Of a stretch of 64,000 nucleotides of DNA, positions 4,180-39,036 are shown piece by piece. Each line of letters begins with the position of its first letter. Position 1 is the stretch's first letter. The DNA lies in the IMG/VR virus record IMGVR_UViG_3300020046_005360. One strand, given 5' to 3'. Both the position numbers and the translations under genes were made by a program. The notes beneath the pieces were generated by a model. That model searched no databases. It was not told the DNA's origin and worked only from the letters and a program-made list of their open reading frames with translations. Source of the stretch: a virus. Its lineage: Duplodnaviria; Caudoviricetes.

Positions 4180-5283
4180 TTATTTTACGATACCAGCTAA
4201 TTGTTGCATTCTAAGTACAAAATCACTTTCTTGTGTTGTTACTTGTTCGTTTAATGCTCTTGGAGAAGAACCCGCTGGTCTTGAAGCGCTTCCTCTGTTT
4301 TCTCTTAATTGAGTAGTTGGCGTTGTGATTAGAGATTCTTTTAATGTTAAGAAAATATTCTTAGTTTCATTAATATTTCTTCCTCTGTCTAATGCATTAA
4401 CTACTTTTACTTTTTGAGATTCTGTTAAATTTTTAGCTTTAAATATTTTATTTACATATAAAAGTTTAGAATTTAACAAATTCATTTCATTAAGTGATTT
4501 TCTTTGTTCTGCTATCACTTTTTTAGCCTCTTGGAGTTCAGTTGATTCTGCTCTTAATGCGGATCCGGCTGCTGATCCTCCTGCGGCTAATTCTGCTTTA
4601 ATTTTAGCTAATACTTTAGGTCCGGCTTTTTTGATCATTGCAATGATATTATCTAATCCAGCGGCTGCTGTATTTGCAGGATCAATTGATCCACCACCCA
4701 TTTCAGATAAAACTTCATCTAAATTAATATCTTCTTCTTCACTTTCTTCTGACTCAGGTTCAAATTCTACTTCACCTTCATCTTCAAATTCTCCTTCAGG
4801 CTCTTCTTCACTTAATTCTAGTTGAACTTGACGAATAATATCTTTAAGTTCATCCACTGTAATTTCACCTACAACATCATCACCTTCAGCGTCTTCTTCT
4901 AATTCTAAACCTTCTGCTCTTAGTGCCGTACCTGCTGCTGCTCCTCCTGCTTCTAATTCTTTTTTAATTTTAGCTAAGATACCTGGAGTTTTTGCTGCTG
5001 CTCCTTTAATCATTGAGATTAAATTATCCAATCCAGCTGCTGCTGCACCAGAAGGTTCTTGCATCGCTTCATCAACGGCTCCTTCTTGTCCTTCTAATTC
5101 GTTAAGTAATTCATCTAAAGATACTTCTGATTCTTCTTCCATTTCATTTAATTGGCTTGAAAGCATACTTTTAATTTGTGGGGCGAACGATTCAGCCATA
5201 GCTAATTTAGCATTACTAAATGCGGTTTCTCTAATTTCTTTTGCTTCTGCTACTGCGTCTGCAAAAAGTTTTGGTTTTGACAT
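4180..5283 (-). CDS. Prohead core/scaffolding protein
   Basis: Acidic, coiled-coil protein between protease and capsid; many L/I-x-E sites; internal ~40-aa duplication; ends RMQQLAGIVK. Confidence 0.8.
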   Translation of the reverse strand: MSKPKLFADAVAEAKEIRETAFSNAKLAMAESFAPQIKSMLSSQLNEMEEESEVSLDELLNELEGQEGAVDEAMQEPSGAAAAGLDNLISMIKGAAAKTPGILAKIKKELEAGGAAAGTALRAEGLELEEDAEGDDVVGEITVDELKDIIRQVQLELSEEEPEGEFEDEGEVEFEPESEESEEEDINLDEVLSEMGGGSIDPANTAAAGLDNIIAMIKKAGPKVLAKIKAELAAGGSAAGSALRAESTELQEAKKVIAEQRKSLNEMNLLNSKLLYVNKIFKAKNLTESQKVKVVNALDRGRNINETKNIFLTLKESLITTPTTQLRENRGSASRPAGSSPRALNEQVTTQESDFVLRMQQLAGIVK

Positions 5284-5478: not shown

Positions 5479-6099
5479 TTATCTTAAGCAGCACATTCCT
5501 GTCTGAGAGCAAACAATTTCTGATATTATTTCGTTTAATTTATCGTATTTAGAATTAGTTTTTGGTATATAATTTTCATTAAGACCTAAAGGTTTAACGA
5601 ATGCTCCTTGTGTTGATGGTTCTGATACTATATCCCAACAAACTAAAGAAAGGTCGTCTTGAACTTCTACAGTACCTTCACCTAAACTTTGCACTGAACC
5701 CATAGCTCTAGATGATATACCTATTTGCACTCCACCTTTTACTAATGCTTTTACTATATTACCTGAAGGGGTGTCTAATATTAAAAGCTTAGCTTTTACA
5801 TCATCTCCATCCCACCAAACCTCTGTTATTCTGTGGCAAACGTTTTTTAAATTGACAACTTGACTATCAGGGTGATCTAATTCTCCTGTTGCTCTATTTT
5901 CAACAACGGGACCATTTTTATAGTTTTCAATTTCTCTTTCAAGTATATTTTTGGGGTAAATCCTTCCATTTTGATTTTTAGCATCAGCACGTTGAATAAT
6001 ACCTTCAAGAATTAAATCACCACTATTATGTTTAATACTCTCATTAATAGATTTAGGGTCGAGTTTAAGTGGAAAGTGTTCTATTAATAATTGCTTCAT
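5479..6099 (-). CDS. gp21: Prohead protease, T4 gp21-like
   Basis: NGRIYP, GELDHP (catalytic His), GISSRAMGS (catalytic Ser) and DIVSEPS motifs. Confidence 0.93.
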   Translation of the reverse strand: MKQLLIEHFPLKLDPKSINESIKHNSGDLILEGIIQRADAKNQNGRIYPKNILEREIENYKNGPVVENRATGELDHPDSQVVNLKNVCHRITEVWWDGDDVKAKLLILDTPSGNIVKALVKGGVQIGISSRAMGSVQSLGEGTVEVQDDLSLVCWDIVSEPSTQGAFVKPLGLNENYIPKTNSKYDKLNEIISEIVCSQTGMCCLR

Positions 6100-7337
6100 T
6101 ATACTCTACTTTTAGTTAATTGAACGCCTTTAGTTCTAGCATTATTTATTATACCAGCAGCTTCATTATCATCTTTAGCATATTGAACATTACCCGCTTT
6201 ATCTTTTACCACAACAGCTTCTTCCATACCATATTTACCACTTGTAATTTTATTTAATTCAGTAGCAATTTCATCTAAGACATCATCATCTTCTAAATCA
6301 TGTTCAGTTAATCCCCAATCTTCAACTATTTGTCCTACAATTTTTCTTTGTTGAGGAGTTAATTCATCTAAATCTAATTCAGGAGCTCTTTCACAATCAG
6401 AACATTCTTCTCCTTCTAAATCCTCTTTTAAACTATTCATTAGTTTATACATTTCAGGAACATCATCTTCCTCCCAAATTTCCATATCTATCATATAATC
6501 TACCAAATCATCCCAACTATTTATAGATAAGACATCTTCATCTTCATTTTCTTGCGAAATTAAATTTTTAAAATTTTGAAACTTTAAAGGATTATTTACT
6601 TTTATTTCTTTTAATTTTTTATTTTGACTTATAAGTTGTTTTCCCCCTGCTTGTTGATTATTATTAAATGTAAATAATATATCTCCTTCATAACCATCTT
6701 CTATATTTTCTATTTTTACATCATAAGGTTTTCCTAATCGTACTCCAAGTATTCTATCCCCAATTTGAACTTTAGAAGGATCAAAATCTGGTATATATTT
6801 ATTTAATTTCCATATCTTGTTGGGGGTATTTACTTTTATTTCTTTTAATTTTTTTAATTGATTTGGAGCAGTAAAGTCTTTTTTTAATTCTTCTGGTCTA
6901 AGATTTTCTTTCTCTGTTTTTTTCTCAGCATCAGAATAACATTTTTTAGTGTAGTAGTAAGGGTCAGAAGTAAGATTTTTTAATACTTTACGTTGTGTTG
7001 AAACCATTTCTTCTTCTGTAGGCATGTTTTGACCAACAGCAAGTTGAGTTAATTCCAATTCATAGTTGATTCCTTTTCCATATTCGTATGGTGAAACTTG
7101 GTCAATCGTAAAAGATTCAATTTCTGGTAGTTTAGGATTTTTATCTGCTTTATATTTTGGGACTAAATCCTTATTTTCGGTAATAATAGATTTTGATTTT
7201 AGAATTTGAATGGTGTCTTTCAACGAGTTAAATTTAGTAATCATAGGAAGTCTAGGATCACGACGTACTTCGTAAAGGAATTTTTCTTCGCTTATAATAC
7301 CCTGTACTAATTGATTATATAGTGTTTGTGCTGTCAT
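6099..7337 (-). CDS. Head-associated protein carrying two EIKVNxP modules
   Basis: Lies in the head cluster; KKLKEIKVNTP and KKLKEIKVNNP each start a distinct segment. Confidence 0.6.
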   Translation of the reverse strand: MTAQTLYNQLVQGIISEEKFLYEVRRDPRLPMITKFNSLKDTIQILKSKSIITENKDLVPKYKADKNPKLPEIESFTIDQVSPYEYGKGINYELELTQLAVGQNMPTEEEMVSTQRKVLKNLTSDPYYYTKKCYSDAEKKTEKENLRPEELKKDFTAPNQLKKLKEIKVNTPNKIWKLNKYIPDFDPSKVQIGDRILGVRLGKPYDVKIENIEDGYEGDILFTFNNNQQAGGKQLISQNKKLKEIKVNNPLKFQNFKNLISQENEDEDVLSINSWDDLVDYMIDMEIWEEDDVPEMYKLMNSLKEDLEGEECSDCERAPELDLDELTPQQRKIVGQIVEDWGLTEHDLEDDDVLDEIATELNKITSGKYGMEEAVVVKDKAGNVQYAKDDNEAAGIINNARTKGVQLTKSRV

Positions 7338-8332
7338 TTATTTTTGGTTTATTATTTTATTCAAATCTGAAATTAAATCTTTTTTATCTTGATTATCTAA
7401 TTCTTCCCACCATTGTCCTTGGTCTGCAAAAGTAGGGTACCCATACATTTCGAGAGTATTATCAGTTTCTTTTTCACTTACTTTATCCCCATCATCATTA
7501 ATTTACGTAAATCCTCAAGTTCTAAAGTGACTATATTAGGGTTATTTATTTTTATCTCGTTTATTTTAGAAATATTTGAAAATGCTTCTTTTAGTTTATT
7601 CTGAATTTTATATAATGAATCTTTAGTACGTTTTAGATATTCTATTTCCTGATCATTTTCCTGTAATTCACCTTTAATACGAGTAGTAAATTCAATAAGA
7701 CGATTTACTTCATCTAATTTTAATTGTATCTCTTTTATCGCGCGATGAAGGATTTCTCTTGGTTTAGGTTTAGAAGTAGATTTTTTAAATTGGGTGTAAC
7801 GAGATTCTGATAGTGTATTTTTTATTTGTAATGATTTGTTATTTTGTTGTAACCAATTTAATATCTTATTAACATCATTGGATTCGAATTCTGGTTCTGT
7901 TGTATAATCGTCTCCCGGTTTATTGAAATCGTAAATCTCAAATTCTCCATCAAATTGGTTTAAATCTTTATATCTTCTTATGACAATATTATCTTCTAAA
8001 AATATTTCACCTTGATCTTTTAGATTTAAAATAGCGTCTTTTAATTCTTGATTATTTGGATTATTAATTTTGATTTCTTCCAAATGTTCTCCTTTCCACA
8101 AATCTTTACTATTTAATCTATCTTTAGGGTCAACTATTTTAAACTTCATAGTTTTAGTATACATGTTTGGTTTAGGAGATGATTCGAATCCTGTTGGTGA
8201 GTTTTTATCTTTTTTGGTTGGTTTACGGAATGCTTTTTTAGTTAAATACCCTCCTGCGTCACCTGATGTAGATGTCTCTAGTAATTCACGGCAGTAGGCC
8301 TTGATTGAGGATTTTAAAATTTTATTATCCAC
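7338..8332 (-). CDS. Head-associated protein with two EIKINNP modules; last module apparently frameshifted (ORF as read is 7478..8332)
   Basis: The -1 frame from ~7500 reads NDDGDKVSEKETDNTLEMYGYPTFADQGQWWEELDNQDKKDLISDLNKIINQK*, ending flush with the next ATG. Confidence 0.6.
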
Positions 8333-16415: not shown

Positions 16416-17036
16416 TTAAAGGTTGATTATTTCTAGCAATTGTTTAACTCTTCTTGGTTTGATATAATTAATTATAAGATCATAGTATTCTTTTTCCACA
16501 GGATGGCAATAACTAGCTGCTTTATTTCTATTATCTTCAGTAAATAAAGGTTGTAAGTTTCTTAAATCATTAATTAATATTAGAGGAGTATCTAATTTAA
16601 ACCATGTTATAGGGATTTTATGATCTATTTCAATAGTATTCCAATTCATATTTTCTATAAATAAGTTTTCTATATAATCCTTTATGATTTTATATTCTTC
16701 TTTACCATGACCATTTTGGAATCTATTTTTTAAATTATGAAATAAATTTCTTATTTTATATGAAGGATTATTTATTCTATATTTAATTTGAGCTTCTTTT
16801 ACTTTATCTGGGTTATCTTTGTTCCATTTTTTATTAACTTCTTTAAATCTTTCTAAATTATTACATTTCCAATTTTTATTTCTAATATGGAATGTTTCTT
16901 TATTATTATTATAATAATTCTTATCAATCTCCTTTTTACATAGTCTACAGACATATGATTTCCCATCAGGAGAAGAAGTTTTATTAGTAAAATTAATTAA
17001 TTCTTTATTTTCTTTACACTTATTACAATATTTCAT
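16416..17036 (-). CDS. HNH-type homing endonuclease-like protein
   Basis: CxxC/CxxC and 'IEIDHKIP...NLQPL...N' motifs. Confidence 0.7.
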   Translation of the reverse strand: MKYCNKCKENKELINFTNKTSSPDGKSYVCRLCKKEIDKNYYNNNKETFHIRNKNWKCNNLERFKEVNKKWNKDNPDKVKEAQIKYRINNPSYKIRNLFHNLKNRFQNGHGKEEYKIIKDYIENLFIENMNWNTIEIDHKIPITWFKLDTPLILINDLRNLQPLFTEDNRNKAASYCHPVEKEYYDLIINYIKPRRVKQLLEIINL

Positions 17037-19528: not shown

Positions 19529-21907
19529 CTAAAGTAATCCTGCGCGATGCATGAGACGTTCTCGAAGGAATTGTTCTTCAAAGTCTTCTTCATCGTCCTG
19601 ATTATCAAGATGTGTATCTATCCTATCTGAAACATATTCTAGATCTTGTAATTCTTCTGGAGTAAGTTCATCCATTCGAATAATATATTTATCAAACCAT
19701 TTTTGGTCAACACCTTTATCTTTCATAAGTTGTTTTAATGGGTTTGGATTATTTACTTTAATTTCTTTAATTTGGTTTATTGATTTAGAAATTTTATAAT
19801 TATTTAAATCATCTTTAGGGATAAATATATGAACATCTTCATCATTTTTATGATAAAATATATAATCTCCTTGATCTTCACCATCGAAAATATAATCATA
19901 TTTTCCATAATCCCCATCATATTCGTATATATCATATATATTTCCTTTTTGGAGATAAAATGGTTTATTGATTTTAATTTCTTTTATATCACTTTTACCA
20001 CTATTAATTTCAAGTTCAGATGAAGGGTATACTCTTCTTGGATCACTACTGAAATCTGGGTATCCACTTATTAAAGGTGTACCTGCTACAGAAGAAGTAT
20101 TTCCATCTATACCTTTTTGTACTACTTTGTTATTTTCATCAACTAAAACCCAATCTTCATAACTATAGTCTTCACCTTTTAGGGGTAGGAGTACTAATTT
20201 TCTACCTTTATCTTCTATAATATAAGGAAGAGCGTATAATAGAGTTGAATATTGTTCTTTCCCATTTACTTTTTCAGCTAAGTTTGTAATAACTTTACGT
20301 TCTTCGGGACTAAGTTGATTCCACTCTTTGGCTGTAATAGGTTTTGGGTTAATATCTTGAACAGGCATATCTGCAGAAGTAGATAATTCTTCGTCACCAA
20401 TATTTGTATCCTTACCAAATTCCCAAGGTGTAAACAGTTTTGAATAAATTTCAAATATTTGTTTTTGTTTTGGATCCTTAATATACTTAATAGCTTGAGG
20501 AGGTAAGTAATCTAGATTTTTTAATTGTTTTTGTACATAATTTTCTGTAGCTTTGGGGCCAAAGAATTTTTCTATATATTCAAATGTAAGATTGTCGTCG
20601 AATGTTTCTAGATATTTTTGTTTAGCTTCGTCATCTAAAAATTTAACGTAAGGTAAAGGTATAGGATCCTTAGAATAATTTGTATGTCTGAAACGGAATG
20701 CTGCATATCTTTTTGCTAGTCCTTCGTTATCTTTTAAGTCCGCATAAGGGAATTTTTGACCATAATTTATGGCTAAGTTCTTTAATTCTTTATCTAATAT
20801 TTTAAGAATTTCAGGTGATAAAGATCCCGCATTAGCTTGAACATAATTTTGTTTATCTTCGTAATCTAACTCACGGAAGTCATTTGCAGATAATCTTTTA
20901 CCTCGCATTGCGGCACCAGAAATCTCAGCTTTAGAAGGATCAACATATTTAAAAATATGTTCTAAATGTCCTATTTTAGGCCAAACTGGTGGAGCTGTTG
21001 TTTTAAGTTTTTCCCAAGGATGAAATTCTTTATCTCCACTATTTTTTGCATCTGTAATCCAATATTTTTTATTTCCTTCACCAACATGAATTACAAAAGC
21101 GTGATATGGATCTGTATCGGGGAGACTTCTATCAAATACGAAATAAAACATACGGTTTGTACCTTCCATAAAACGATACCTATCATACATTGTATTAGAT
21201 GGTTGAGCTATACACCAACCATATTTTTTCCTACCACCTTCGGAAGGATTATAAGCGATACATTTATGTTGTGCATCTCCTTTATAAATTTCGATACCAT
21301 CTTTATCATACACTTTATCTGCGTCTGTAGTAGCGGTATTTTGATCACCTTCTTCCCCAACTTTAGCTTGCATAGGGAATAAAGCATCTAACATATGTTC
21401 CATCTGACCAAAATCCCAAGCACGAGGGTCTAGATATGCATCGTTAGGAATAAGACGTTTTGGGACTAATTTTTGTACTTCTTCTTTGCTATAATTTCCA
21501 TCTTCGGTTCCGTTCGCTAAGGCGTATTTAAGGTTACGTCTGTTATTCATAAAACGAATTACGTAGCTCGTTACATCACCTTTATCCATACGTTCTTTTT
21601 CTACGAACATCTGGATAGCATCTTTTTTTATCTTATCCTCTTTTTCAGGTAAGGAACGCAGTAAGTTAACCATATCAGCCCAAGAATACTTATCTATATT
21701 AAGATAATTTTGACCTGTTTTTAGTTCGTCGCTAAGGGCTACTTGTTGTAGTTTAGAAGATAAACCTGATTTAATCTGATCAAAACGTTGTATTACTTGT
21801 CTTGCAAGATTATCGTCGATTTGAGGTGATGTTTTCTTCCATCTATCTATTGTAGTTTGGATAGTCTTGTCTGAGTATTCTAGTATTAATATATCTGTTA
21901 GTTTCAT
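19529..21907 (-). CDS. Large hypothetical protein with MKLTDILILE leader, WCI-motif domain and two C-terminal EIK[IV]NxP modules
   Basis: GWCIAQ...YDRYR...FYFVFD; EIKINKP and EIKVNNP; ends RLMHRAGLL. Confidence 0.65.
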   Translation of the reverse strand: MKLTDILILEYSDKTIQTTIDRWKKTSPQIDDNLARQVIQRFDQIKSGLSSKLQQVALSDELKTGQNYLNIDKYSWADMVNLLRSLPEKEDKIKKDAIQMFVEKERMDKGDVTSYVIRFMNNRRNLKYALANGTEDGNYSKEEVQKLVPKRLIPNDAYLDPRAWDFGQMEHMLDALFPMQAKVGEEGDQNTATTDADKVYDKDGIEIYKGDAQHKCIAYNPSEGGRKKYGWCIAQPSNTMYDRYRFMEGTNRMFYFVFDRSLPDTDPYHAFVIHVGEGNKKYWITDAKNSGDKEFHPWEKLKTTAPPVWPKIGHLEHIFKYVDPSKAEISGAAMRGKRLSANDFRELDYEDKQNYVQANAGSLSPEILKILDKELKNLAINYGQKFPYADLKDNEGLAKRYAAFRFRHTNYSKDPIPLPYVKFLDDEAKQKYLETFDDNLTFEYIEKFFGPKATENYVQKQLKNLDYLPPQAIKYIKDPKQKQIFEIYSKLFTPWEFGKDTNIGDEELSTSADMPVQDINPKPITAKEWNQLSPEERKVITNLAEKVNGKEQYSTLLYALPYIIEDKGRKLVLLPLKGEDYSYEDWVLVDENNKVVQKGIDGNTSSVAGTPLISGYPDFSSDPRRVYPSSELEINSGKSDIKEIKINKPFYLQKGNIYDIYEYDGDYGKYDYIFDGEDQGDYIFYHKNDEDVHIFIPKDDLNNYKISKSINQIKEIKVNNPNPLKQLMKDKGVDQKWFDKYIIRMDELTPEELQDLEYVSDRIDTHLDNQDDEEDFEEQFLRERLMHRAGLL

Positions 21908-21910
21908 TGT

Positions 21911-22183
21911 TTAATATTTAGGATATAAACCTGTTTTAATAAAAGTTAAATTATGATCAAAATCATTTTGATCAAGATAACCAATATTAATTAAATAATT
22001 CACTGCATCTTCTGGAGTATTCTGGTCCTTAAAGTCTAATATTTCATGGGGTTCATACTCCTGGTCTTGCATACTTAATATATTATCTTCTTTCCATTCA
22101 TTAAAATATGGATATATAGGATTGTTTACTTTTATTTCAGTTATTATACCAGCTAGTTGTTGTAATCTTTTTATTTCGTTCAT
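21911..22183 (-). CDS. Minimal cargo unit: MNEIKRLQQLAGI leader + EIKVNNP module
   Basis: Direct translation; acidic payload. Confidence 0.7.
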   Translation of the reverse strand: MNEIKRLQQLAGIITEIKVNNPIYPYFNEWKEDNILSMQDQEYEPHEILDFKDQNTPEDAVNYLINIGYLDQNDFDHNLTFIKTGLYPKY

Positions 22184-22229: not shown

Positions 22230-24098
22230 TTAAATATTTTTTATATTAATAATATCATCTTTAGAAATGGTTAAATAATGATCATTATCATCATCATCTT
22301 CATTATTCATATTAATATTTCGATTCCCAACAATAGCAGGTTTAGAATACGGATTTAGTTCATTGGGCGTTTTATTAACTATTATTAATTTTTCCATATT
22401 ACCATTTTTTATTTTGAAACTATATACATCTCCTATCTTTAAATTTTCGAATTTAATTGATTCAGGATTGTTTACTTTTATTTCATCAATCCCTTCTTGA
22501 TCATAATCATCAGCTTTTAAATCGAAAGATATATCTTTTAATGTAGAGTCAACCCATCTTTTTTGTTTTGGAGATAATTCTTCATTAATAGCGTTTTCTA
22601 CGAAATCTATAAAATCACCATCTTCAAGTTGATATACTTCGGAAAAGAAGAATTCTCGTATACGAGGATCAGAGTGTGGTGAGTCTGCAAAAATATCATT
22701 TAATGCATCAAAAATATGTTTACCAAACTTAATATCATGCAACTCATTTGATAAGGTATCTACTTTATCTACAACTCCTTGATTAGCTTCTTTATCACCT
22801 TTAAAACCTTGTAATGAAACTAATTCATATAAACCTTTAATTATTTCATGAACTAACATTGGAAAACAAATAGCGCGAGCACGAATTGTTATACCGGATT
22901 CTTGTTGTTCGTTTAGTCTATCTAATTCATTTTTTATCCATTCAGGATTATTTAATTTTTCTCCTTGTTTTTGGATAATTTTTTGTTTATATTTTTTTGA
23001 ATAACAAGGAGTATTATCTATAGCTTTATTAAATACATTAATGGTATTTTCATAGTCTTTAGTGTATTTAGGAGTTAATAATTTTTGAATGAATTGTTTT
23101 AATTTATCTTTATTCCAATCTTCTAATCCATTAAATCCCAAAGATCCACCCCAATGAGAAAAATCATTTGCCATATTATAAACATTATCTTCTTTATCAT
23201 ATATATTATCCCCATTCATGCTTAATATATTATTCTTAAGCATTTTAAATAATATAGGATTTTGTTTTAAAAAATCAACCCAAGATTCATCAAAAAAACA
23301 TTCTAATATTAATTTAGGTTGTTTTACTTTTATCTCATTAATAATAACTTTACTTGAACCCCCAGCAGCTTTATGACCTTGAGCTAATAAAGATAATAAC
23401 ATTGCTATAGCATTATCATCATCATAAATCCCAAATGAATTTTTCATTATTTGGTTATATTTGTCTATAAGAGTAGGGTCGATTGCGTCAAGATAATCTT
23501 TAAATAGATAGAATGAGAAAGCACCACGTAGTGCTGCACCTTGAGTAATTCCATTTATTATACGGCGACGAGATTCAGGGGATATTTCTTCGTTTATAAA
23601 GGGAATAAATTCTTTTAATCTAGATGTTGGATTTTTTTTAATTAGATTTAAAATCCTCTCTGAAGGTATGTCTCCTAATATATTTTGTGTTTCTTCAACA
23701 AAATGAAGTATCCATTCTTTTTCTCTACCTTTAATAGGTCTTCCTCCTTTACTTGATAATTTTATAAATGTATTTAAAATATCACCATCAGAAATAGGTT
23801 TGTTTATTTTTATTTCATCCAATTCTGAATGAATATCGCTCATTGGAACAATTTTAGCATCCAACTTTATCCCCTCTTCTTCAACAATAGGATATAAATC
23901 TTCTATCATTTGAATAGCAAGTTGTTCTAATTGATCTTTATATGGAGCTTCTGCCTTAGAGATGTCATCCAATAATTCTTGTGATTGAATCATTGTTTGC
24001 ATAAGTGTTTTATCACCAAGCATCGATTTAAGATTTTCTTGGGATTTTTTATTTAGCTTAGCTAGGGTTGAGGGCTTAAATATTTGATTATACTCCAT
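22230..24098 (-). CDS. Hypothetical protein with two internal and one terminal EIK[IV]xxP modules
   Basis: EIKINKP, EIKVKQP and EIKVNNP. Confidence 0.65.
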   Translation of the reverse strand: MEYNQIFKPSTLAKLNKKSQENLKSMLGDKTLMQTMIQSQELLDDISKAEAPYKDQLEQLAIQMIEDLYPIVEEEGIKLDAKIVPMSDIHSELDEIKINKPISDGDILNTFIKLSSKGGRPIKGREKEWILHFVEETQNILGDIPSERILNLIKKNPTSRLKEFIPFINEEISPESRRRIINGITQGAALRGAFSFYLFKDYLDAIDPTLIDKYNQIMKNSFGIYDDDNAIAMLLSLLAQGHKAAGGSSKVIINEIKVKQPKLILECFFDESWVDFLKQNPILFKMLKNNILSMNGDNIYDKEDNVYNMANDFSHWGGSLGFNGLEDWNKDKLKQFIQKLLTPKYTKDYENTINVFNKAIDNTPCYSKKYKQKIIQKQGEKLNNPEWIKNELDRLNEQQESGITIRARAICFPMLVHEIIKGLYELVSLQGFKGDKEANQGVVDKVDTLSNELHDIKFGKHIFDALNDIFADSPHSDPRIREFFFSEVYQLEDGDFIDFVENAINEELSPKQKRWVDSTLKDISFDLKADDYDQEGIDEIKVNNPESIKFENLKIGDVYSFKIKNGNMEKLIIVNKTPNELNPYSKPAIVGNRNINMNNEDDDDNDHYLTISKDDIINIKNI

Positions 24099-24346
24099 TA
24101 TTTTAATTTTTGGAAACGGTCTGCTATTTTTTGAGCTATATCTTGTTCGTTTTCTTTAATTACACCTTCTGCCTTAGGGCGTGTGGAAGGTGCTTCGGTT
24201 GGTGGAGTTAATGTACGTCTCTTTGGTTTACGTTCTGGAGTGTCAGTTTCTGGTTTAACGATTGTTTCACGTTCAGGTGCAACTCTTTGAGGTTGAGTAC
24301 TTCTTACTACCTCTTTAATTATTTGTTTTAATTCGCTACGTTTCAT
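24098..24346 (-). CDS. Small Pro-rich protein with MKRSELKQIIKE leader
   Basis: ORF track; leader shared with other ORFs. Confidence 0.6.
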   Translation of the reverse strand: MKRSELKQIIKEVVRSTQPQRVAPERETIVKPETDTPERKPKRRTLTPPTEAPSTRPKAEGVIKENEQDIAQKIADRFQKLK

Positions 24347-24359
24347 ATTTTATTTTAAA

Positions 24360-25910
24360 TTATTTGTTTAATAAAATTTCTAAGTCTTTATATAATTGTG
24401 TTTTCTCTTCTTGATCTAAAATATTAAAAATTTTTTCATTTTTGATTGGATTTAAAAATACACCCTCACTAAAACCATATTTATTTCCTAATTCTTCAAG
24501 TTCTTCATCTATCTCAGGAAACGTGTCATTTTCTTCAAAATAATCTTCAATTTTATTATGTAATGAATTATATAAATCCATAAGTTTTTTAGAATCAATT
24601 AATGGATTATTTATCTTTATTTCCGAAAGTATTCCAGCTAATTGTTGTAATCTTTTTATTTCGTTCATTGTATTTAAATTATTTTTTTCTAAATATAGAA
24701 TACCATTTTTTTCTTTAACATTATAATGACCCCAACTATTTTTTTCAATATATTGTTTATAGGTATTATTTCTTTTTTTATGAATATCACTAGGGATATC
24801 ACGATCAGGATAATTTATAATTATAACATTTGGGTCATATTTACTAAAATATTTTTTAGCAACATTAAAAACATTATTTAATATTTTTAAATATAATTGT
24901 ATATTAGATTGTTCTCCAGTATTTCTTAATTTGGTAGTACCATATTCTTCATTAACAGAAAAAGATAATATACCAACTTTTTGAAATTTTTCGGGTATTT
25001 CATCTTTTAAATCTTCATAAAAATGTTTGTCTCCAGTCATTAAATTTTGTAAATGAGTTCCATATATTTTATCTATATATTCAAATGATACTGTAGGATT
25101 TACAGATAAAATAACTTCTATAGTATTACCATCTACAGTAAATGTTGATTTAGTAGTATTAGATACATCCTCAAATGCTTGTGTTTGTTTTTCATCTGTA
25201 GGATTTAATTCTTGGTTTATTTTTATTTCTCTTAAAAATGGGTCGATCTTGTACTTCTTACCGTCCATATGAAGTGTCTTTAAACCATCCAAATTTAACA
25301 TTCTGTAGCCCTTAGGACCATTTCCAATTTTAAGGTCGTATACGGGAACAAGTCCTTTATCTTTGGGACTATATGGAAGTTCTCCACCAGACGTATACTT
25401 GCGCACACCTGTAAGGCCATTCATTGCGCGTAGTGATCCGTCTCCTCGTTTAGTGAATACAGCTTGGAATATTTTTCCTTTAAAGGAAAGTAATTCACGT
25501 GCTTGTTCTTTACTTATAGTAGTATACTCGGCTTGTTTTTTCTCTATTTCTGGAGAAATAGGTTCATCTGGAACAGGTATAGTTTCAGGGGCTACTTCTA
25601 CATCAGGTTCAACTGTAATTTCTTCTTCATCACTCTTTGGGATAAGTTCGTCGTCTGAAATTTTTATATTTTCCGGTTCTTCTTTAGGAACAGGAATAGT
25701 TTCAGGTTCTAATTCTACATCCTCTTCGTCTTTGTCTTTGTCTTTGTCTTTGTCCTCATCTTGTTCATTAAGACCTTGTGGAAATGTCTTTTTGTAATCT
25801 AAAACAGCTATTCTCTCCTTAATAACTCCATCGATATATTTTTTATCCCATTTTTTGTTTTGGGGATCTTGAAGGAGAATGTTTGATATGTCGGAAATTT
25901 TTATACTCAT
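24360..25910 (-). CDS. Mosaic protein: acidic linker, WYL-like SH3 domain, EIKINQ module and fused MNEIKRLQQLAGI-EIKINNP unit
   Basis: 'FTKRGDGSLRAM...VYDL...GYRM' resembles the DUF2693/WYL-like fold; DK microsatellite. Confidence 0.55.
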   Translation of the reverse strand: MSIKISDISNILLQDPQNKKWDKKYIDGVIKERIAVLDYKKTFPQGLNEQDEDKDKDKDKDEEDVELEPETIPVPKEEPENIKISDDELIPKSDEEEITVEPDVEVAPETIPVPDEPISPEIEKKQAEYTTISKEQARELLSFKGKIFQAVFTKRGDGSLRAMNGLTGVRKYTSGGELPYSPKDKGLVPVYDLKIGNGPKGYRMLNLDGLKTLHMDGKKYKIDPFLREIKINQELNPTDEKQTQAFEDVSNTTKSTFTVDGNTIEVILSVNPTVSFEYIDKIYGTHLQNLMTGDKHFYEDLKDEIPEKFQKVGILSFSVNEEYGTTKLRNTGEQSNIQLYLKILNNVFNVAKKYFSKYDPNVIIINYPDRDIPSDIHKKRNNTYKQYIEKNSWGHYNVKEKNGILYLEKNNLNTMNEIKRLQQLAGILSEIKINNPLIDSKKLMDLYNSLHNKIEDYFEENDTFPEIDEELEELGNKYGFSEGVFLNPIKNEKIFNILDQEEKTQLYKDLEILLNK

Positions 25911-25911
25911 T

Positions 25912-26205
25912 TTATTTTGATGGAGTTATTTTTGTTAATTCATCTTCCCAAAATTCTATTATATTACCACCATCTTCTTCATCCCAATCATCTTCAAAAC
26001 CATTTGGATCCATTTTAAAAAATGCAGACTTATTATTTTCAACAGGATTATAACCATCAAATTCAACCCCAGTTTCTGATATATTTTCTCCTTCCAAATC
26101 ATATTTTTCTCCTAATCTTAAATTAGAGAATTTTACGTTTGGATTATTTACTTTAATTTCAGTTAATATGTCAGCTAGTTGTTGTAATCTTTGTATTTCG
26201 TTCAT
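25912..26205 (-). CDS. Minimal cargo unit: MNEIQRLQQLADI leader + EIKVNNP module
   Basis: Direct translation; very acidic payload. Confidence 0.7.
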   Translation of the reverse strand: MNEIQRLQQLADILTEIKVNNPNVKFSNLRLGEKYDLEGENISETGVEFDGYNPVENNKSAFFKMDPNGFEDDWDEEDGGNIIEFWEDELTKITPSK

Positions 26206-27511: not shown

Positions 27512-28189
27512 TTAAGCTATTAATTGTTTTACTTCATCAATACCTTCTACGGCTGATTTAAATATTTTCTTCCATTCAAAGTCATATAAACCACAAGGTT
27601 CCGGATTTAGATAAATTATATTTTTATTATATTGAGTTATATTTGCTGATGGGTATACTTGTAGACTAGAACCTATTATAATTAGATGGTTTGATTTTCT
27701 AACTATATTTTTATATAGATGTGGTATATCTACTGGTAGTTGTTCTTCAAAAAGAACTGTGTTATGTCTAAGTTGTTCTTTGGTTATTGGATGTAAATCT
27801 CCTTCTTTAATATCTTCATTCCATTCATATGGGTTGTCTTTATTCCAATCACAAACTTCAAAAACATTTCCATGTAAATGAATTACATTAGTACTACCAG
27901 CCCTTTCATGTAAGTTATCTATATTTGTTGTAATAACAGTAACATCATGGTCTTTTTCTAATTCAGCTATAACTTTATGAGCGTAATTAGGTTCACAAGT
28001 TGAAATTAATTTTCTAGCATCATTATGGAAGTCAAGAACTTGAGTTAAAGCTATATCCAATCCTCTTCTTGATGCAACTAAGTTAACATCATATTTACTC
28101 CATAAACTATCTTCACTACCGCGAAAAGTTGGAATCCCACTTTCCTGTGAAATTCCAGCTCCGGTGAAGAATATTATTTTTTTCCTCAT
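27512..28189 (-). CDS. Sir2/CobB-family NAD-dependent deacylase
   Basis: GAGISQESGIPTFRG, TTNIDNLHERAG, HLHG and GSSLQVYP motifs. Confidence 0.92.
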   Translation of the reverse strand: MRKKIIFFTGAGISQESGIPTFRGSEDSLWSKYDVNLVASRRGLDIALTQVLDFHNDARKLISTCEPNYAHKVIAELEKDHDVTVITTNIDNLHERAGSTNVIHLHGNVFEVCDWNKDNPYEWNEDIKEGDLHPITKEQLRHNTVLFEEQLPVDIPHLYKNIVRKSNHLIIIGSSLQVYPSANITQYNKNIIYLNPEPCGLYDFEWKKIFKSAVEGIDEVKQLIA

Positions 28190-28192
28190 ATT

Positions 28193-29530
28193 TTATTTGT
28201 TAATTAAAAGTATTTCAGGTCCCATTTCTTTAATTTGAATTTGTGGATATTTTTCTTTACAAATTTCAGCACATTTTAAAAATATTCTACGTCTATATTC
28301 ACTTATAGGGTGGAGTTTTATTAGTTGTGGTGTTTTATTTATCAAATATTTTGGGATTATTTCATCTCTAATGATTTTACATATAGTATTAGACCTCATT
28401 TCATCTTTTCCACCTACCAACCCATCCTCAGGATTAATACTTCCAATCATTTTATCATAATCGTAAACTTCTATCCATTCTCCTTTTTTATTTTTTAAAA
28501 CAAAATAAGATTCTATATATTTAGATGAAGGATCAAAACTAACTTCTAATTTATTTCCATACTTATCCTCGAAACCCCAATGATTACTAATGTCTTCAGA
28601 ATAATTATAAGCCATATCAGGATCGGCAAGTTCCATAAATATTTCAGTGTCCGTATGAGATATAGAATCAGACTCATTTAAACCGATACATTCTTTTTGT
28701 ATTCTAGCTTCAATTAAATTTTTCTTTCTAAAAATAGAAGAATCTTTATTTTCTCTTATTATTCTAAACCTAATTGGTTTCTTTACTTGTACTTCTTTAT
28801 CTTCTTGTAATTCAGCTTCCTCTTCTTCAGGAGCTTCTTCATTAGGTACTTCTGAAGTATCAACACCATCTAAATCTAAATTTTCGTCCCCAGGTTCCGC
28901 TGTCATATCTTGGACAAATTGGTCCTTCATGTCGGTCTCGTTTTCAATCTCTTCACCAGGACCTGCACTACCAGGAGGTAGTCCTTGTAGTAATAGGTTT
29001 GATATAGCTTTTATAGCATATTCTTCATCTTTTAAGTTCATTAAATGATAAACTTTTCCAGACACTTTTGCCATATAAGCTTTTGGGTTATAAATTAAGA
29101 GAAAATTACGTCCGTTATGTAAAAGTATTTTAAATGTAGTTGGTTTGGGGCTTACAACAAATATACTTGTTATATAATCTTTATACACAGGAGACATTAA
29201 GTCTGTAAGTGTAGCTTCGAGTGAAGGATATTTTTGAAGAATATATTCGGTTGGATCTTTTTCAAATTCAAGTGTTTCTTGTCTTTGATTCTCAATAGCG
29301 TTATCTATCTCTTCTCTAAGTATGCTTTTTAAATCCATTTCTTGAATAATTTTACTACCAATTTTTAATATACCTTTATAAGATTTAGGTTGTTTAGTTG
29401 AACCATCATTTTCTTTGAACCAACCCCAACCATCATTTTGGTGATGATTTTGCCAATAAAGTTTATCTCCATTTTTGAAGGTAACTAAATCTCCGAAATT
29501 TAATTTTGGTGGAGTATATTTTTTACCCAT
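28193..29530 (-). CDS. Hypothetical multi-domain protein
   Basis: Internal MDLKSILREEI leader-like segment, acidic linker, LxE sites. Confidence 0.55.
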   Translation of the reverse strand: MGKKYTPPKLNFGDLVTFKNGDKLYWQNHHQNDGWGWFKENDGSTKQPKSYKGILKIGSKIIQEMDLKSILREEIDNAIENQRQETLEFEKDPTEYILQKYPSLEATLTDLMSPVYKDYITSIFVVSPKPTTFKILLHNGRNFLLIYNPKAYMAKVSGKVYHLMNLKDEEYAIKAISNLLLQGLPPGSAGPGEEIENETDMKDQFVQDMTAEPGDENLDLDGVDTSEVPNEEAPEEEEAELQEDKEVQVKKPIRFRIIRENKDSSIFRKKNLIEARIQKECIGLNESDSISHTDTEIFMELADPDMAYNYSEDISNHWGFEDKYGNKLEVSFDPSSKYIESYFVLKNKKGEWIEVYDYDKMIGSINPEDGLVGGKDEMRSNTICKIIRDEIIPKYLINKTPQLIKLHPISEYRRRIFLKCAEICKEKYPQIQIKEMGPEILLINK

Positions 29531-30312
29531 TATCTTAGATCTAATTTATCTTTAGGAATTTTGATAAATTTTAATTCATCATCCCCAGTGATTTCATAAG
29601 GAATATTATGTTTATCTAACAAAGAAGTTAATTTATCCATTTGTTCTTGTTCTACTTCCCTATCTTCTTCCTCTTCAAATAAAAATTCCATTTTTATGAA
29701 TCCAGGTTCATCAACATAAGGTTCAGTACCCCACCAAGTTTCCCCATCTTTGGATAATGAAACTACTTTTAGTTCTCCATCATCATCATCTTCATCATAA
29801 TCAAATTGAATTTTTCCAGGTGAGTTTACTTTTATTTCACTAAAAGTAGAATTTTGATCTGCTACAGTATATTCTTGTAATGTTAAATCATACCCAGAAC
29901 GCAATGCTTCTGCTTGGGCTTGTTTGTAACTTTGAGGTAATTCTCCTCCAAAAAAATCTAATATATGCATGTAATCATTAAACTTTTTTAATTGGGGTTG
30001 ATTTACTCTTATTTCACTCTGAATTCCAGCTAATTCCTGCATACGATCTACTTCACCTCCATATACAGGTTTTTCTCCACGAATAATTCGTGCTACGTTT
30101 TCAGGATCAGCTCTATCTAATACTTTATTTCCACGAGCAACTTGATCTTCATCTTCAGTTACTTCAATATCACCATTAGCTATTCTTAATAATATTTTAT
30201 CCAATGTATCTTTAGTTAAACCTTTTGTTGTACCTCCTGGAGCGTAGCGTGAATAACCTTTTTCTTCCAATAGTACTTCTTTAATTATATTTCTTAAATG
30301 CAATTTTTTCAT
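29530..30312 (-). CDS. Protein with MKKLHLRNIIKE leader, RMQELAGI motif and two EI[KR]VNxP modules
   Basis: DRMQELAGIQSEIRVNQP and FSEIKVNSP. Confidence 0.65.
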   Translation of the reverse strand: MKKLHLRNIIKEVLLEEKGYSRYAPGGTTKGLTKDTLDKILLRIANGDIEVTEDEDQVARGNKVLDRADPENVARIIRGEKPVYGGEVDRMQELAGIQSEIRVNQPQLKKFNDYMHILDFFGGELPQSYKQAQAEALRSGYDLTLQEYTVADQNSTFSEIKVNSPGKIQFDYDEDDDDGELKVVSLSKDGETWWGTEPYVDEPGFIKMEFLFEEEEDREVEQEQMDKLTSLLDKHNIPYEITGDDELKFIKIPKDKLDLR

Positions 30313-35619: not shown

Positions 35620-36164
35620 AAACCTAGTTTTTGTAATTCTTGTATAATTTCTTGTGTATTACCTTTATAAAGTAAACCTATCCCATTTCGAGCTTTCCAA
35701 GCCTGTATTGTGTCTTCACGATCGTCTATTAAAATTTGATTTGGACCAGATAGATCTGATTTACGTTCTGCAGATCTGAATTCAATATCATAATCACCTA
35801 AATTATCTTGAACCCAATGGGTTTTACCTTCAACCGAAACATTATTTCGTGATGGTGCAGTAAGAATAATAGGATTATATTGTTTAATATAATTCCACAA
35901 TTCTTGTCCTTCAGGCATCCAACTCATTCCTCTATAAAATCGCATACCGACCTCTTCATCAATAAGTGACCAGAATTTTTGTAATCCAATCTTAGGACCA
36001 AATTCCCTCTCGGCCCTAGCTCTATATTCAGATGGAGATAATCCACTAAAATGTTCGAAGCGGGATTCAAAGTCACATAAACAACCATCCAAATCTTGGT
36101 AAATTTGATATGAATCTTGCATATCTTCTAATAATAATTCATTTAATGTCATAACTTTATTCAA
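35616..36164 (-). CDS. HAD-family 5'(3')-deoxyribonucleotidase-like protein
   Basis: DLDGCLCDF, ILTAP, K..W and LIDDR motifs. Confidence 0.85.
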   Translation of the reverse strand: MNKVMTLNELLLEDMQDSYQIYQDLDGCLCDFESRFEHFSGLSPSEYRARAEREFGPKIGLQKFWSLIDEEVGMRFYRGMSWMPEGQELWNYIKQYNPIILTAPSRNNVSVEGKTHWVQDNLGDYDIEFRSAERKSDLSGPNQILIDDREDTIQAWKARNGIGLLYKGNTQEIIQELQKLGL

Positions 36165-39036
36165 ATATTTCGGGGTTTTCTCTACTAAATTTACGCATCA
36201 TAGTAGCTGCAGTTGAATTACATTCGTTCTCCCATTCATCTCCATCTTGACCAGATTCAGGTTTTAGTCTACCTTCTATATCTTGTTTTAAATGAACCAT
36301 TTCATGAAACATACTTCTTGTAATATCTGCTAAATTACGATTATAAGTAACAACTCTTATACTTTTATCACCGGGAGCATACCCACCAAATGAATGATGT
36401 TCTTTTGTATATTCAGGATTATTTATCAATATAACATTTGGTTTTGGAATATCCAAATATTTCATAGCATACTGTACTGCTTTATTTAATATAGGAGCAT
36501 GTTCTTTTTGAAATACTTCTTTTAATAATTTAGATTCATTAATAGTTTCAGGAACATCATTGGGATTAATTACACTTTTTGTTTTTAGAAAATTATTTAC
36601 TTCATAATCTCCCCACCAATTATTATATATTTTATTTGGATATCTTTCTATATTATGACTTATAATTGCAGGAAACGTAGGTGCTCTAAAATCATCTTTT
36701 ATTTCATTTTCACTAAGCCATTTATATCCATCTCTATTTAAAATAGGGAGTATTTTTAGCCAAGCTTCTTTATCTTTAACGTAATAATGCCAATTTTTAT
36801 CAGTTGGAAAATATAAACCCGGTTTATTCACTTTAATTTCATCAACTTCGTGATAAGGTTCTATAGTTGGTAATATATCTGAGATATATTGTTCCACACT
36901 TATTTCTTTATCTTTGTAAAGTGTTTTTACTTGTGGATATTTTGTTTGTAACTCTTGGATAAGTTTAAGAACACGAGTATTATCTCCCAACTTATCTAAA
37001 AATACATCAATTTCTTTAATATAATTTTTTGCGTTTGGAATTTCCTTTTTAGTACCCAAATTAATTCTTTCTTCAGATTCGTCTTGGGAAATTTTAGGAT
37101 GAACATTATTCGTATCCATTTCATCTGAATAGTAATAAAATGGAACAAATTTATAATTGTTTGATAATTTATTTCCGTCTAGTTTAATACGGACTAAAGA
37201 ACCTCCTATTTTAGGGTCATTTTTCCATAAATTTTTATTACGAGTAGTAGAAAAGTAATTTAAATATTCGATCCCCTTATCTTTAAAATCCGATTCTTTT
37301 TTTCTAAATGATTTAAAATCAGGACCTAAGTCATCAACTGCCGTTACGGAAGAATAAAATTTATTATCATCTAAAATACCTCTTAATCCATTAAGATTAG
37401 AAAAATGATACACATCACCTACGCTTTTAGCTTCATCTACACGTCTTGGTTCTCGTTTCTCCATCCCCATCATAATACCAACTAGTTTTGGAAGAGTAGA
37501 AGTATCTTTAATTCTATTATAGAAATCTGGAATATTATCACCTGACATATCATATCCATGTTTTTCTAATATATCACTTAATTCGGATTGGATTTTTACA
37601 GAATGAATTAAATCTTGGAAATCTTGGTAAGGTATTTTACCAGGCATATTTACTTTAATTTCTTCAATTGAAGCTAGTTTATCATAATATTTTGGATCTT
37701 CAAAGAGGTGATCCATAGCTATTTCTTCTGCTACGTCTTTAGAAGTGGTATGTTCTAATTCTACTTTAATACCTTTTTGGAGTTGTTTTCTTAGACTAGA
37801 TATATTAGCTTTATGTTTATCAGCTATGTCTTGTAAAGTTAGTCCAGAAGATAAACCACCAGGTATTTTTTCTTCATTTAATGAGTCTTTAACCACATTA
37901 AGCAATTCAGGGGCTTTATTAATCCATGATGATGAATCTTCGATATTAATATGAGGAGTAGATAAATATGGAGGTGGATTAGTTATTGCCGATTTTGATA
38001 CAACTTTATAATTATCATCCCAATCCTCAACTAATCTAGACCATTTAGGAACATTCATATTAGCAAAAGATGCTATTATTTTTTTATCTCTAACATCAAT
38101 TAAAAAATAATCTGGAGGTCTTTGTGTTGATTCTTGGGTTTTTAAAAATTCATTATATGAATGACTTTCTCCGTAAGCTTTTTTATAATTAAAGGGTTGA
38201 TTTACTTTTATTTCATTTAAATTTAATAAAGATTCATATTCTTTATAAATTTTATTTAATTCCTGTCCTGGTAGTGCTTCTAAAAATTCTTTAGTATTAC
38301 GAAAAGTTATTACATCCCCATATTTATCTTTAATATCTTCTATTTTATTAATATAATACAGTTGATCATTACTTTGAAGGGTTCTATATTTTTCTCTTAT
38401 TTGTTTTATCAAATTTATAACATCAATAACAGATTTAAATCCCGGAGTATTTACTTTTATTTCATGAAGTTGAAAATTCATTAAGAAATCGTCTACTTTT
38501 ATTCCTTCAGGAATTAAAGATTTAATTGCTAATCTATTTCTAATTCGTATAGCTTCACGCAATGAAGTAGATGATATGTCATCAAAATTACCAGCGTCTA
38601 TAATATCAACATTTGAATATTTTTCTCTATTTTCGTTTATAGAATTATATCTATCTTTTTCTCCTTTTCCATATACAACAATATAATTATTTGTTTTATC
38701 CTTAACTATATTATAAATTTCTGTTATAGGAGAAGATGAAGTAGATATTTTTACTTTAACATTTTCGGGCAATAAAGGAATATATTGTTTCCAAACTTTA
38801 AGTGATACTTCAGGAGTATATCCTTCACGTATATTATTTGAAATAATAATATGAAGTTCATCTACGTGTTGAGCAGCTCTCTTAGCAACTTCAACGTGAC
38901 CACGATGTGGGGGGGAGAACGAACCAGGATATAAGCTAATTATTTTAGCAGATTCGTGTATTATTCTTTCAGCAATTTTTTGTCCTAATCCTTCCATTCT
39001 GTTATTTCTTGTAATATTTTTTCTTTGGGATAACAT
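36157..39036 (-). CDS. Polyprotein-like mosaic: HxGH nucleotidyltransferase, four EIKVNxP modules, DUF5661-like, ART-like and HExxH domains
   Basis: PGSFSPPHRGH...ISST.LR; KGIKVELEH...IAMDHL.EDP.YY; YHF...STTR...ESEE; FHEMVH...E. Confidence 0.7.
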   Translation of the reverse strand: MLSQRKNITRNNRMEGLGQKIAERIIHESAKIISLYPGSFSPPHRGHVEVAKRAAQHVDELHIIISNNIREGYTPEVSLKVWKQYIPLLPENVKVKISTSSSPITEIYNIVKDKTNNYIVVYGKGEKDRYNSINENREKYSNVDIIDAGNFDDISSTSLREAIRIRNRLAIKSLIPEGIKVDDFLMNFQLHEIKVNTPGFKSVIDVINLIKQIREKYRTLQSNDQLYYINKIEDIKDKYGDVITFRNTKEFLEALPGQELNKIYKEYESLLNLNEIKVNQPFNYKKAYGESHSYNEFLKTQESTQRPPDYFLIDVRDKKIIASFANMNVPKWSRLVEDWDDNYKVVSKSAITNPPPYLSTPHINIEDSSSWINKAPELLNVVKDSLNEEKIPGGLSSGLTLQDIADKHKANISSLRKQLQKGIKVELEHTTSKDVAEEIAMDHLFEDPKYYDKLASIEEIKVNMPGKIPYQDFQDLIHSVKIQSELSDILEKHGYDMSGDNIPDFYNRIKDTSTLPKLVGIMMGMEKREPRRVDEAKSVGDVYHFSNLNGLRGILDDNKFYSSVTAVDDLGPDFKSFRKKESDFKDKGIEYLNYFSTTRNKNLWKNDPKIGGSLVRIKLDGNKLSNNYKFVPFYYYSDEMDTNNVHPKISQDESEERINLGTKKEIPNAKNYIKEIDVFLDKLGDNTRVLKLIQELQTKYPQVKTLYKDKEISVEQYISDILPTIEPYHEVDEIKVNKPGLYFPTDKNWHYYVKDKEAWLKILPILNRDGYKWLSENEIKDDFRAPTFPAIISHNIERYPNKIYNNWWGDYEVNNFLKTKSVINPNDVPETINESKLLKEVFQKEHAPILNKAVQYAMKYLDIPKPNVILINNPEYTKEHHSFGGYAPGDKSIRVVTYNRNLADITRSMFHEMVHLKQDIEGRLKPESGQDGDEWENECNSTAATMMRKFSRENPEIFE

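Follow-up and report, generated by a model that had tools for sequence, protein, structure and literature searches.

In phage T4, N-terminal capsid-targeting sequences (CTSs) of 10-19 amino acids (aa) bring diverse internal proteins into the scaffolding core and are removed by the gp21 protease (PMC9026906, PMC3012670). Processing is governed by residues 8 and 10 of the 10-aa leader, which correspond to P3 and the P1 Glu, and few determinants beyond these two are known for gp21 (PMC9026906). It has been proposed that CTSs serve evolution as a means of getting a variety of proteins into the head (PMC9026906, PMC3012670). Here we analyze a 64,000-nucleotide stretch of the virus record IMGVR_UViG_3300020046_005360 (the window), in which an open reading frame (ORF) at positions 22230-24098 encodes a 622-aa protein made up of a conserved core and three additional segments. 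Each segment opens with a short peptide, the tag, of the general form E↓IK[VI]NxP, where the arrow marks the putative cut site. Based on sequence comparison, structural models and analogy with T4, we think that the segments are probably, though far from certainly, cleavable cargo cassettes belonging to an elaborated form of the T4 CTS and internal-protein system.

Like the T4 system with its internal proteins IPI-IPIII and Alt, the one described here combines a protease of the gp21 family, short leaders ending in [LI]-x-E on diverse, fast-evolving small proteins, and a scaffold (here a candidate) that is rich in such sites. Three features are new relative to the T4 targeting-leader and gp21 theme: a near-invariant IK[VI]NxP hexapeptide on the prime side of the cut site, which is absent in T4; the concatenation of cassettes, with up to 10 in a single polypeptide; and their nesting in loops of folded proteins with a site on both flanks. 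The systems also differ in that the leader here copies the C-terminus of the scaffold candidate, and in that cleavage and packaging are in this case proposed from sequence. In the giant phages, head and ejection proteins can be cut several times each, with fragments being discarded, and the motif used is a small residue-X-Glu. To our knowledge, neither a conserved prime-side tag, nor exchangeable cassettes in loops at fixed sites, nor an allelic series of insert-free and insert-bearing forms has been described for them. Reports on phiKZ, 201phi2-1 and SPN3US describe diverged gp21 homologs that cut many head proteins after the Glu of a short motif (PMC9026906, PMC5694885, PMC10052503).

All three extra segments of the carrier ORF open with [LI]-x-E↓I-K-[VI]-N/K-x-P, and the two internal ones also close with [LI]-x-E (Table 1). 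The ORF and the internal segments at 23586-23813 and 22908-23333 that an earlier note on this DNA had described are confirmed, as are the tags, which lie at aa 95, 255 and 539. For cassette A the start given in the note holds as well, but the end that it placed behind E171 more likely lies behind E170 (INE↓EISPE), judging from the [LI]xE rule and from homologs, which read FINE↓SITPE at this point. No significant Pfam or PHROGs family was found for the whole ORF, its three core pieces or its three cassettes, and a search for stand-alone relatives of cassette B returned only a fragment of the same protein.

Comparison with homologs indicates that the segments occupy fixed sites. A word-indexed search yielded 275 homologs of 342-1086 aa and an exhaustive phmmer search gave 750 matches, with most full-length homologs in the latter aligning in exactly three stretches (~1-95, 170-255 and 398-540). 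When 21 homologs were aligned (alignment A1), 343-aa forms were found to lack all three segments, while others had unalignable sequence at the same three places that starts LDE↓IK(V/I)NxP and ends (L/I)(N/D)E followed by ↓S or ↓Q. This is the outcome that the earlier note had named as support for passenger inserts: homologs either without exactly these segments or with unrelated ones in their place. A core hidden Markov model (HMM) was then built from 48 insert-free forms (320-360 aa) and used to align 266 homologs with hmmalign. Inserts of at least 25 aa were located at core-HMM column 109 (n=45), at columns 184/192 (n=55) and at the C-terminus (n=157 proteins); besides these, there were only N-terminal extensions in 22 rows. 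The distal end of the insert reads [LIVMF]xE in 38 of the 39 site-A inserts and in all 46 site-B ones (84/85 overall), and it is not followed by IKVNNP. Empty sites in the close subfamily also read [LI]xE (SLDE↓SIS, VIINE↓QQSG), which those of a distant subfamily do not. The cassette can therefore be described as a unit, IK[VI]NxP...[LI]xE, placed directly after a pre-existing [LI]xE. The longest homolog measures 1967 aa, and another, with 1810 aa, bears 10 tags.

Structural models place these sites in surface loops and in the C-terminal tail. In the model of P0052, an insert-free close homolog (51-sequence alignment; predicted local distance difference test score (pLDDT) 87, predicted template modelling score 0.86), site A is a disordered loop (residues 92-97), site B is a turn at the tip of a beta-hairpin joining strands 172-178 and 186-192, and site C is a disordered tail. 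The 622-aa protein itself is modelled with a core that stays above pLDDT 90 despite inserts of 76 and 142 aa, and the site-B strands are still predicted to pair across the 142 aa. Its cassettes appear as separate units of low to moderate confidence, A and B being helical and C beta-rich, and pLDDT falls below 50 at residues 99-104, 159-171, 261-268, 397-399 and 539-548, which are tags and junctions. Junctions in loops were the result of structure prediction that the earlier note had named as support.

Table 1. Features of the carrier ORF and of other window genes discussed in the text (window coordinates; arrows mark putative cut sites).
Feature	Position	Strand	Evidence or remarks
Carrier ORF (P0001), 622 aa: conserved ~340-aa core and three cassettes	22230..24098	-	
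Core segment 1 (aa 1-95)	23814..24098	-	Core HMM positions 8-101; pLDDT >90
Tag A, LDE↓IKINKP (aa 95-101)	23796..23816	-	pLDDT <50 at residues 99-104
Cassette A (aa 96-171; end more likely INE↓ at aa 170), helical, orphan	23586..23813	-	Absent or different in homologs; pLDDT 50-68
Core segment 2 (aa 172-255)	23334..23585	-	phmmer, HMM match, model
Tag B, INE↓IKVKQP (aa 255-261)	23316..23336	-	
Cassette B (aa 256-397), ends RLNE↓QQESG, helical	22908..23333	-	
Core segment 3 (aa 398-539), with conserved H-E-x-x-K...E and N-E-P-x-D motifs	22482..22907	-	
Tag C, IDE↓IKVNNP (aa 539-545)	22464..22484	-	
Cassette C (aa 540-622), small beta-rich C-terminal module	22233..22481	-	
Stand-alone cassette gene, leader MNEIKRLQQLAGIITE↓IKVNNP	21911..22183	-	Body homologous to a site-A insert (P0054, E 4e-7) and a C-terminal cassette (P0030) of other phages
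Stand-alone cassette gene, same leader and tag as 21911..22183	25912..26205	-	
516-aa ORF with a whole internal leader including Met (..NTMNEIKRLQQLAGILSE↓IKINNP)	24360..25910	-	
792-aa ORF, two C-terminal cassettes	19529..21907	-	643-aa body
Second host protein, between portal and protease; insert LEE↓IKINNP...LSE↓SRY and C-terminal cassette	7478..8332	-	Short homologs without insert
Head-cluster ORF, two tags (LKE↓IKVNTP, LKE↓IKVNNP), then LKE↓D	6099..7337	-	
ORF with tag-to-tag 59-aa cassette	29530..30312	-	Recurs in a gene ~31 kb away
959-aa protein, cytidylyltransferase-like domain, four tags	36157..39036	-	One cassette resembles the site-B insert of P0027
Prohead protease, Peptidase_S77 (T4 gp21 family), candidate processing enzyme	5479..6099	-	Pfam PF03420 E 3.3e-33; PHROG head maturation protease phrog_207 E 2.1e-57
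Scaffold candidate	4180..5283	-	16 [LI]xE sites; C-terminus ...LRMQQLAGIVK resembles cassette leader
gp23-type major capsid protein	2513-4153	-	Pfam Gp23 E 1.5e-72
T4-type (gp20) portal	9200-11113	-	
Large terminase, 926 aa	11138-13918	-	N- and C-terminal terminase matches

The carrier is not the only protein built in this way. The bracketing that had been noticed in ORF 7478 (LEE↓IKINNP...LSE↓SRY) and ORF 6099 (LKE↓IKVN...LKE↓DLEG) is real, and the family of ORF 7478 includes homologs of 160-170 aa that lack the insert as well as others with different tagged inserts ending LNE↓S(R/H/K)Y. By sequence comparison, the insertion pattern extends solidly to hundreds of metagenomic proteins and to this second carrier family.

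Cassettes are also exchanged between sites and genes. When 336 insert pieces and the window modules were compared all-against-all by BLAST, they fell into 152 groups, of which 108 had a single member. Several of the cassette families span sites A, B and C together with other window ORFs and stand-alone leader genes. A site-B insert of P0027, for instance, is matched by one cassette of ORF 36157 (E 4e-19, 39% over 101 aa). The two copies of the 59-aa cassette of ORF 29530 are identical at 54 of 59 residues and have ~22 synonymous differences, with identity beginning and stopping at the tags; the cassette body shows the mark of purifying selection in this comparison of sequences. ORF 24360-25910 holds an entire leader with its Met and so represents a cassette gene that once stood alone and has since been fused. 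The 19529 body, a gene of its own in this phage, occurs in-frame behind the core in six others (~50% identical over ~650 aa); tags precede it in the five fusions with checkable tag positions, the sixth, P0063, being partial with one tag. In such fusions, tags stand in place of gene boundaries.

There are 182 distinct tagged cassettes in the one protein family. A Pfam search with 148 distinct tagged cassettes, whose median length is ~90 aa and of which 36% are net acidic, gave one match to the Imm5 immunity family and one to DUF5754, leaving 146 without a match. The Imm5 match (Pfam E 6.5e-10, one member of the homolog-cassette alignment A5) is the sole conflict-related annotation among the 148. 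A few cassettes match PHROGs that carry no functional annotation, and three such families also match a stand-alone ORF beside the core in a tag-free genome. A cargo role such as counter-defence is suggested only by likeness to the T4 internal proteins.

The tag itself is far more frequent than composition would predict. The pattern E-[IV]-[KR]-[IVL]-N-x-P occurs 23 times in the 175-kb genome, whereas 200 rounds of shuffling within proteins gave 0.045 copies on average and at most 1. These strict tags fall in 13 ORFs, all on the coding strand, and an IKVHNP variant stands behind a leader in a 14th; P1 is always E and P3 is I or L in 19 of the 23. The peptide was also found in 38 IMG/VR stretches and across phages whose cores are ~50% identical. 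In the 87 copies from these stretches, which include a few chance-frame matches, I is conserved at 92%, K at 92%, N at 99% and P at 100%, with E being near invariant. A tblastn search of GenBank phages with the 23-aa leader plus tag (E 10) gave no match, so that no cultured phage with the tag system was found by this route, and a literature search with the tag motif strings found no paper containing them.

The genome is 175,065 bp, and the window corresponds to its positions 102777-166776 in reverse; every long ORF of the window is on the minus strand, and GC content is ~27-28%. The closest cultured relatives of the capsid protein are those of Flavobacterium phage immuto (53%) and Microcystis phage Mel-JY01 (50%), and the source is an uncultured, distant T4-like myovirus. 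In T4, the prohead-core genes 67 and 68 sit between the portal and protease genes. The tagged ORFs 7478 and 6099 are found at the same place here. The motif [LI]xE is enriched about threefold (4.4 versus 1.5 per 100 aa) in the scaffold candidate, which has 16 sites, and in the protease, which has 9; this fits a retained gp21-like specificity as far as sequence can tell.

A further link to head maturation is provided by the leaders. In this genome, the N-terminus of six small stand-alone ORFs reads M(x)NEI(K/Q/E)RLQ(Q/E)LA(G/D)IxxE↓ and leads into the tag, whereas the inserted cassettes of the carrier ORF have the tag alone. The scaffold candidate ends in RMQQLAGIVK, a match to the leader NEIKRLQQLAGI. 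Leaders in other phages are 10-13 aa long (MIKLIDILRE↓IKVNNP, MDIAKQRNFLLSE↓IKINNP) and resemble the T4 leader in length and ending. The N-terminus of ORF 19529, MKLTDILILE↓YSD, resembles the 10-aa leaders MIKLxDILxE↓IKVNNP of tagged ORFs on other contigs and, from this likeness, may represent another kind of capsid-targeting leader, one that is T4-like and lacks the IKVNNP tag. Complex prediction for the capsid protein with the leader ORF 21911 gave no answer (score 0.00), a result that counts neither for nor against binding.

Of the mechanisms considered, gp21-type cleavage at the tags agrees best with the T4-like context, the S77 protease, the P3/P1 pattern, the leaders and the scaffold match. 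According to this model, a conserved folded protein of ~340 aa would have become the carrier of small exchangeable cassettes in one T4-like lineage. The carrier would enter the prohead, where the gp21-type serine protease would cut behind the Glu of each [LI]xE, freeing the cassettes as small proteins starting with IK[VI]NxP and leaving three interwoven core fragments held together non-covalently. In stand-alone cassette genes the same cut site would follow a leader of 16 aa, a copy of the end of the scaffold candidate that would act as a CTS. The freed proteins would probably be ejected with the DNA, like T4 internal proteins. The earlier note had proposed passengers excised by double cleavage; in-frame insertion, loop positions, exchange, [LI]xE on both flanks and a Peptidase_S77 gene are all in its favor, and double cleavage itself is the interpretation that fits these best.

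If the tags are processing sites, the single leader per internal protein of T4 has here been turned into a general cassette system, in which any module could be earmarked for release by a signal of seven residues, many per polypeptide and even nested in folded proteins. Such a system would explain the quick diversification of ejected, probably counter-defence, proteins and would imply a large pool of unannotated small proteins, given that almost none of the 182 tagged cassettes has a Pfam match. Foreign proteins could also be brought into T4-type capsids with such a compact natural tag, a purpose for which the T4 leader already serves in engineering, and in the conserved prime-side residues a gp21-type protease would have its first strong determinant of specificity.

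Several points weigh against this mechanism. Cleavage, packaging and the cargo role are predictions from sequence. The gene for the core is found away from the head-gene cluster, no leader or function is recognised in its product, and five complete related genomes (161-183 kb) hold the core with zero tags, indicating that the core's own function needs no processing. P1' is a bulky Ile, and the tagged hosts include proteins that resemble cytoplasmic enzymes, such as the cytidylyltransferase-like ORF 36157. The near-invariance of six residues past the putative cut exceeds known gp21 needs and calls for a further function. Finally, ORFs on other contigs (loci L006, L023, L039 and L104) start MNE↓IKVNKP, and a 3-aa "leader" is too short for targeting; these starts suggest that the tag has a function of its own and hint that the signal resides in it rather than in a leader.

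The last two points would also fit a reading in which the cassettes are permanent nested domains that are never cut, with the carrier displaying them on its surface loops and the tag being a flexible linker or a peptide that docks to the scaffold, the capsid interior or another partner. Domain insertion in loops is common, the core fold is predicted to be intact with its inserts, and tag conservation goes beyond what gp21 is known to require (PMC9026906). We nevertheless regard permanent domains as unlikely. Neither a pure linker nor a tag remnant would explain why the far ends of inserts read [LIVMF]xE where no tag follows, and it would also be left unexplained why genes that are separate in one phage are joined by a tag in another and why, in stand-alone genes, the tag comes directly after a leader ending in [LI]xE.

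Docking and cleavage could also be combined. In a bolder proposal, which we put forward as speculation and rate as rather doubtful, the heptapeptide E↓IK[VI]NxP would be a hitherto undescribed, dual-purpose signal of an environmental T4-like lineage: its prime side would dock to the zymogen of the prohead protease or to the scaffolding core, and the protease, once active, would cut it, so that any bracketed segment, even in the loop of a folded enzyme, would be loaded into the capsid, released as an ejectable effector and able to move freely between carriers. If true, this would amount to leaderless targeting, as in the ORFs starting MNE↓IKVNKP, and a natural plug-in system for capsid cargo.

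Cleavage might alternatively be carried out by another protease, the candidate being the carrier core itself. Its conserved motifs are FPMLV-H-E-x-x-K-G-L-Y-E and V-D-x-L-x-N-E-P-x-D-L-x-Y-G-K, in which E220 and E254 are invariant, K223 is conserved at 99.6%, D249 and D257 at 98-99.6%, H219 at 94% and E227 at 93%. The nearest structures by VIA-align are DUF885, M32 carboxypeptidases, M3 oligoendopeptidase F and a predicted zincin-like protease. Judging from these motifs and model comparisons, the core looks like an enzyme or a degenerate peptidase. A core profile searched against PDB sequences gave nothing below E 0.2, and Foldseek with the core model gave no PDB match at E 0.001 or better; BFVD returned one uncharacterised phage protein, and a search of the ESM Atlas by shape and features gave nothing usable. 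Self-processing by the core would resemble the polyvalent proteins of phages and conjugative elements, which Iyer, Burroughs, Anand, de Souza and Aravind reportedly described in 2017 as long strings of small domains with roles in conflict, which process themselves into separate effector domains and are predicted to be freed by proteolysis once delivered. The likeness would lie in the very long multi-module polypeptides and in the Imm5-matching cassette; however, polyvalent proteins are defined by enzymatic and peptidase domains, whereas the joints here are uniform tags and 146 of 148 cassettes have no Pfam family.

The zincin-type neighbours, the conserved polar motifs and the heavy cassette load of the core, which exceeds that of any other protein and reaches 10 tags in 1810 aa, all speak for self-processing, but we consider it quite improbable. 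With helical models, Z scores of 4.3-6.2 fall within noise, which by the tool's own statement includes values of 5-6, and where HExxH has its second zinc-binding His the core has the near-invariant Lys. In addition, the P3/P1 pattern is that of gp21, and the core is tag-free in the five complete genomes mentioned above and has no tag within 10 kb at 74 of 80 IMG/VR loci, where it is insert-free. The core family predates the tag system and does not depend on it. It is widespread in T4-like phages and also occurs in megaphage records of >600 kb. Directly upstream of the carrier lies an 82-aa ORF (24098-24346), and an 81-aa ORF is likewise placed (9738-9983) in the tag-free complete genome L045. 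The likeness is one of position and size only, and the 82-aa ORF may be a conserved partner of the core protein. The neighbours of the core in L045 mostly carry no functional annotation, and its synteny with the ~81-aa upstream ORF and a dehydrogenase-like gene downstream offered no hint of function.

The sharp limits of cassette identity at tags and the presence of the same cassette families at many sites could instead mean that the tag acts as a DNA-level recombination joint for cassette shuffling and has no peptide role, with its 20 AT-rich nucleotides supplying microhomology. There is a reported precedent in the adhesin genes of T-even tail fibres, where, in work attributed to Tetart et al. 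in 1998, short conserved motifs are said to flank exchangeable modules in a DNA-homology-driven process at one locus. The two have in common short motifs flanking exchangeable segments in T4-like phages, but here the motif is conserved as a peptide and is found in at least 14 genes of the genome. Tag codons vary synonymously roughly as genome usage predicts (Ile ATA/ATT/ATC 12/5/1; Pro CCT/CCA/CCC/CCG 8/5/3/2), with only Val GTA being over-used (12 of 13). Together with the retention of the peptide across phages with diverged cores, this indicates that selection acts on the peptide. Moreover, the distal junction is just [LI]xE, ~9 nucleotides, and is not identical to the proximal one. A purely DNA-level signal is less credible still than self-processing, although recombination at tags may contribute as a side effect. 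The variation at synonymous positions also led us to reject an internal late promoter within the tag DNA. Ribosome skipping of the 2A type (NPGP) was rejected as well, being a different motif with a eukaryotic mechanism.

That the inserts might be inteins or other protein-splicing elements is excluded on sequence criteria: they are in-frame passengers whose removal leaves a seamless host and the residue after site A is mostly Ser, but they start with Ile and end with Glu rather than running from Cys/Ser to His-Asn, they are mutually unrelated (182 distinct cassettes), no Hint or intein domain was found in Pfam scans of the inserts or the 148 cassettes, and their proposed removal would leave a nicked host that is not re-ligated.

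A few other features of the window were recorded. The large terminase ORF has an extra middle region between its N- and C-terminal terminase matches that may be an intein or another insertion, and an HNH endonuclease gene (13918-14814) follows directly after it. Three paralogous endonuclease VII/HNH-like genes are dispersed in the window (330-986, 1897-2484 and 16416-17036) and are likely homing endonucleases. Auxiliary genes code for a Sir2-family protein (27512-28189), a PhoH-like protein (1186-1836) and the cytidylyltransferase-like enzyme with four tagged cassettes (36157-39036).

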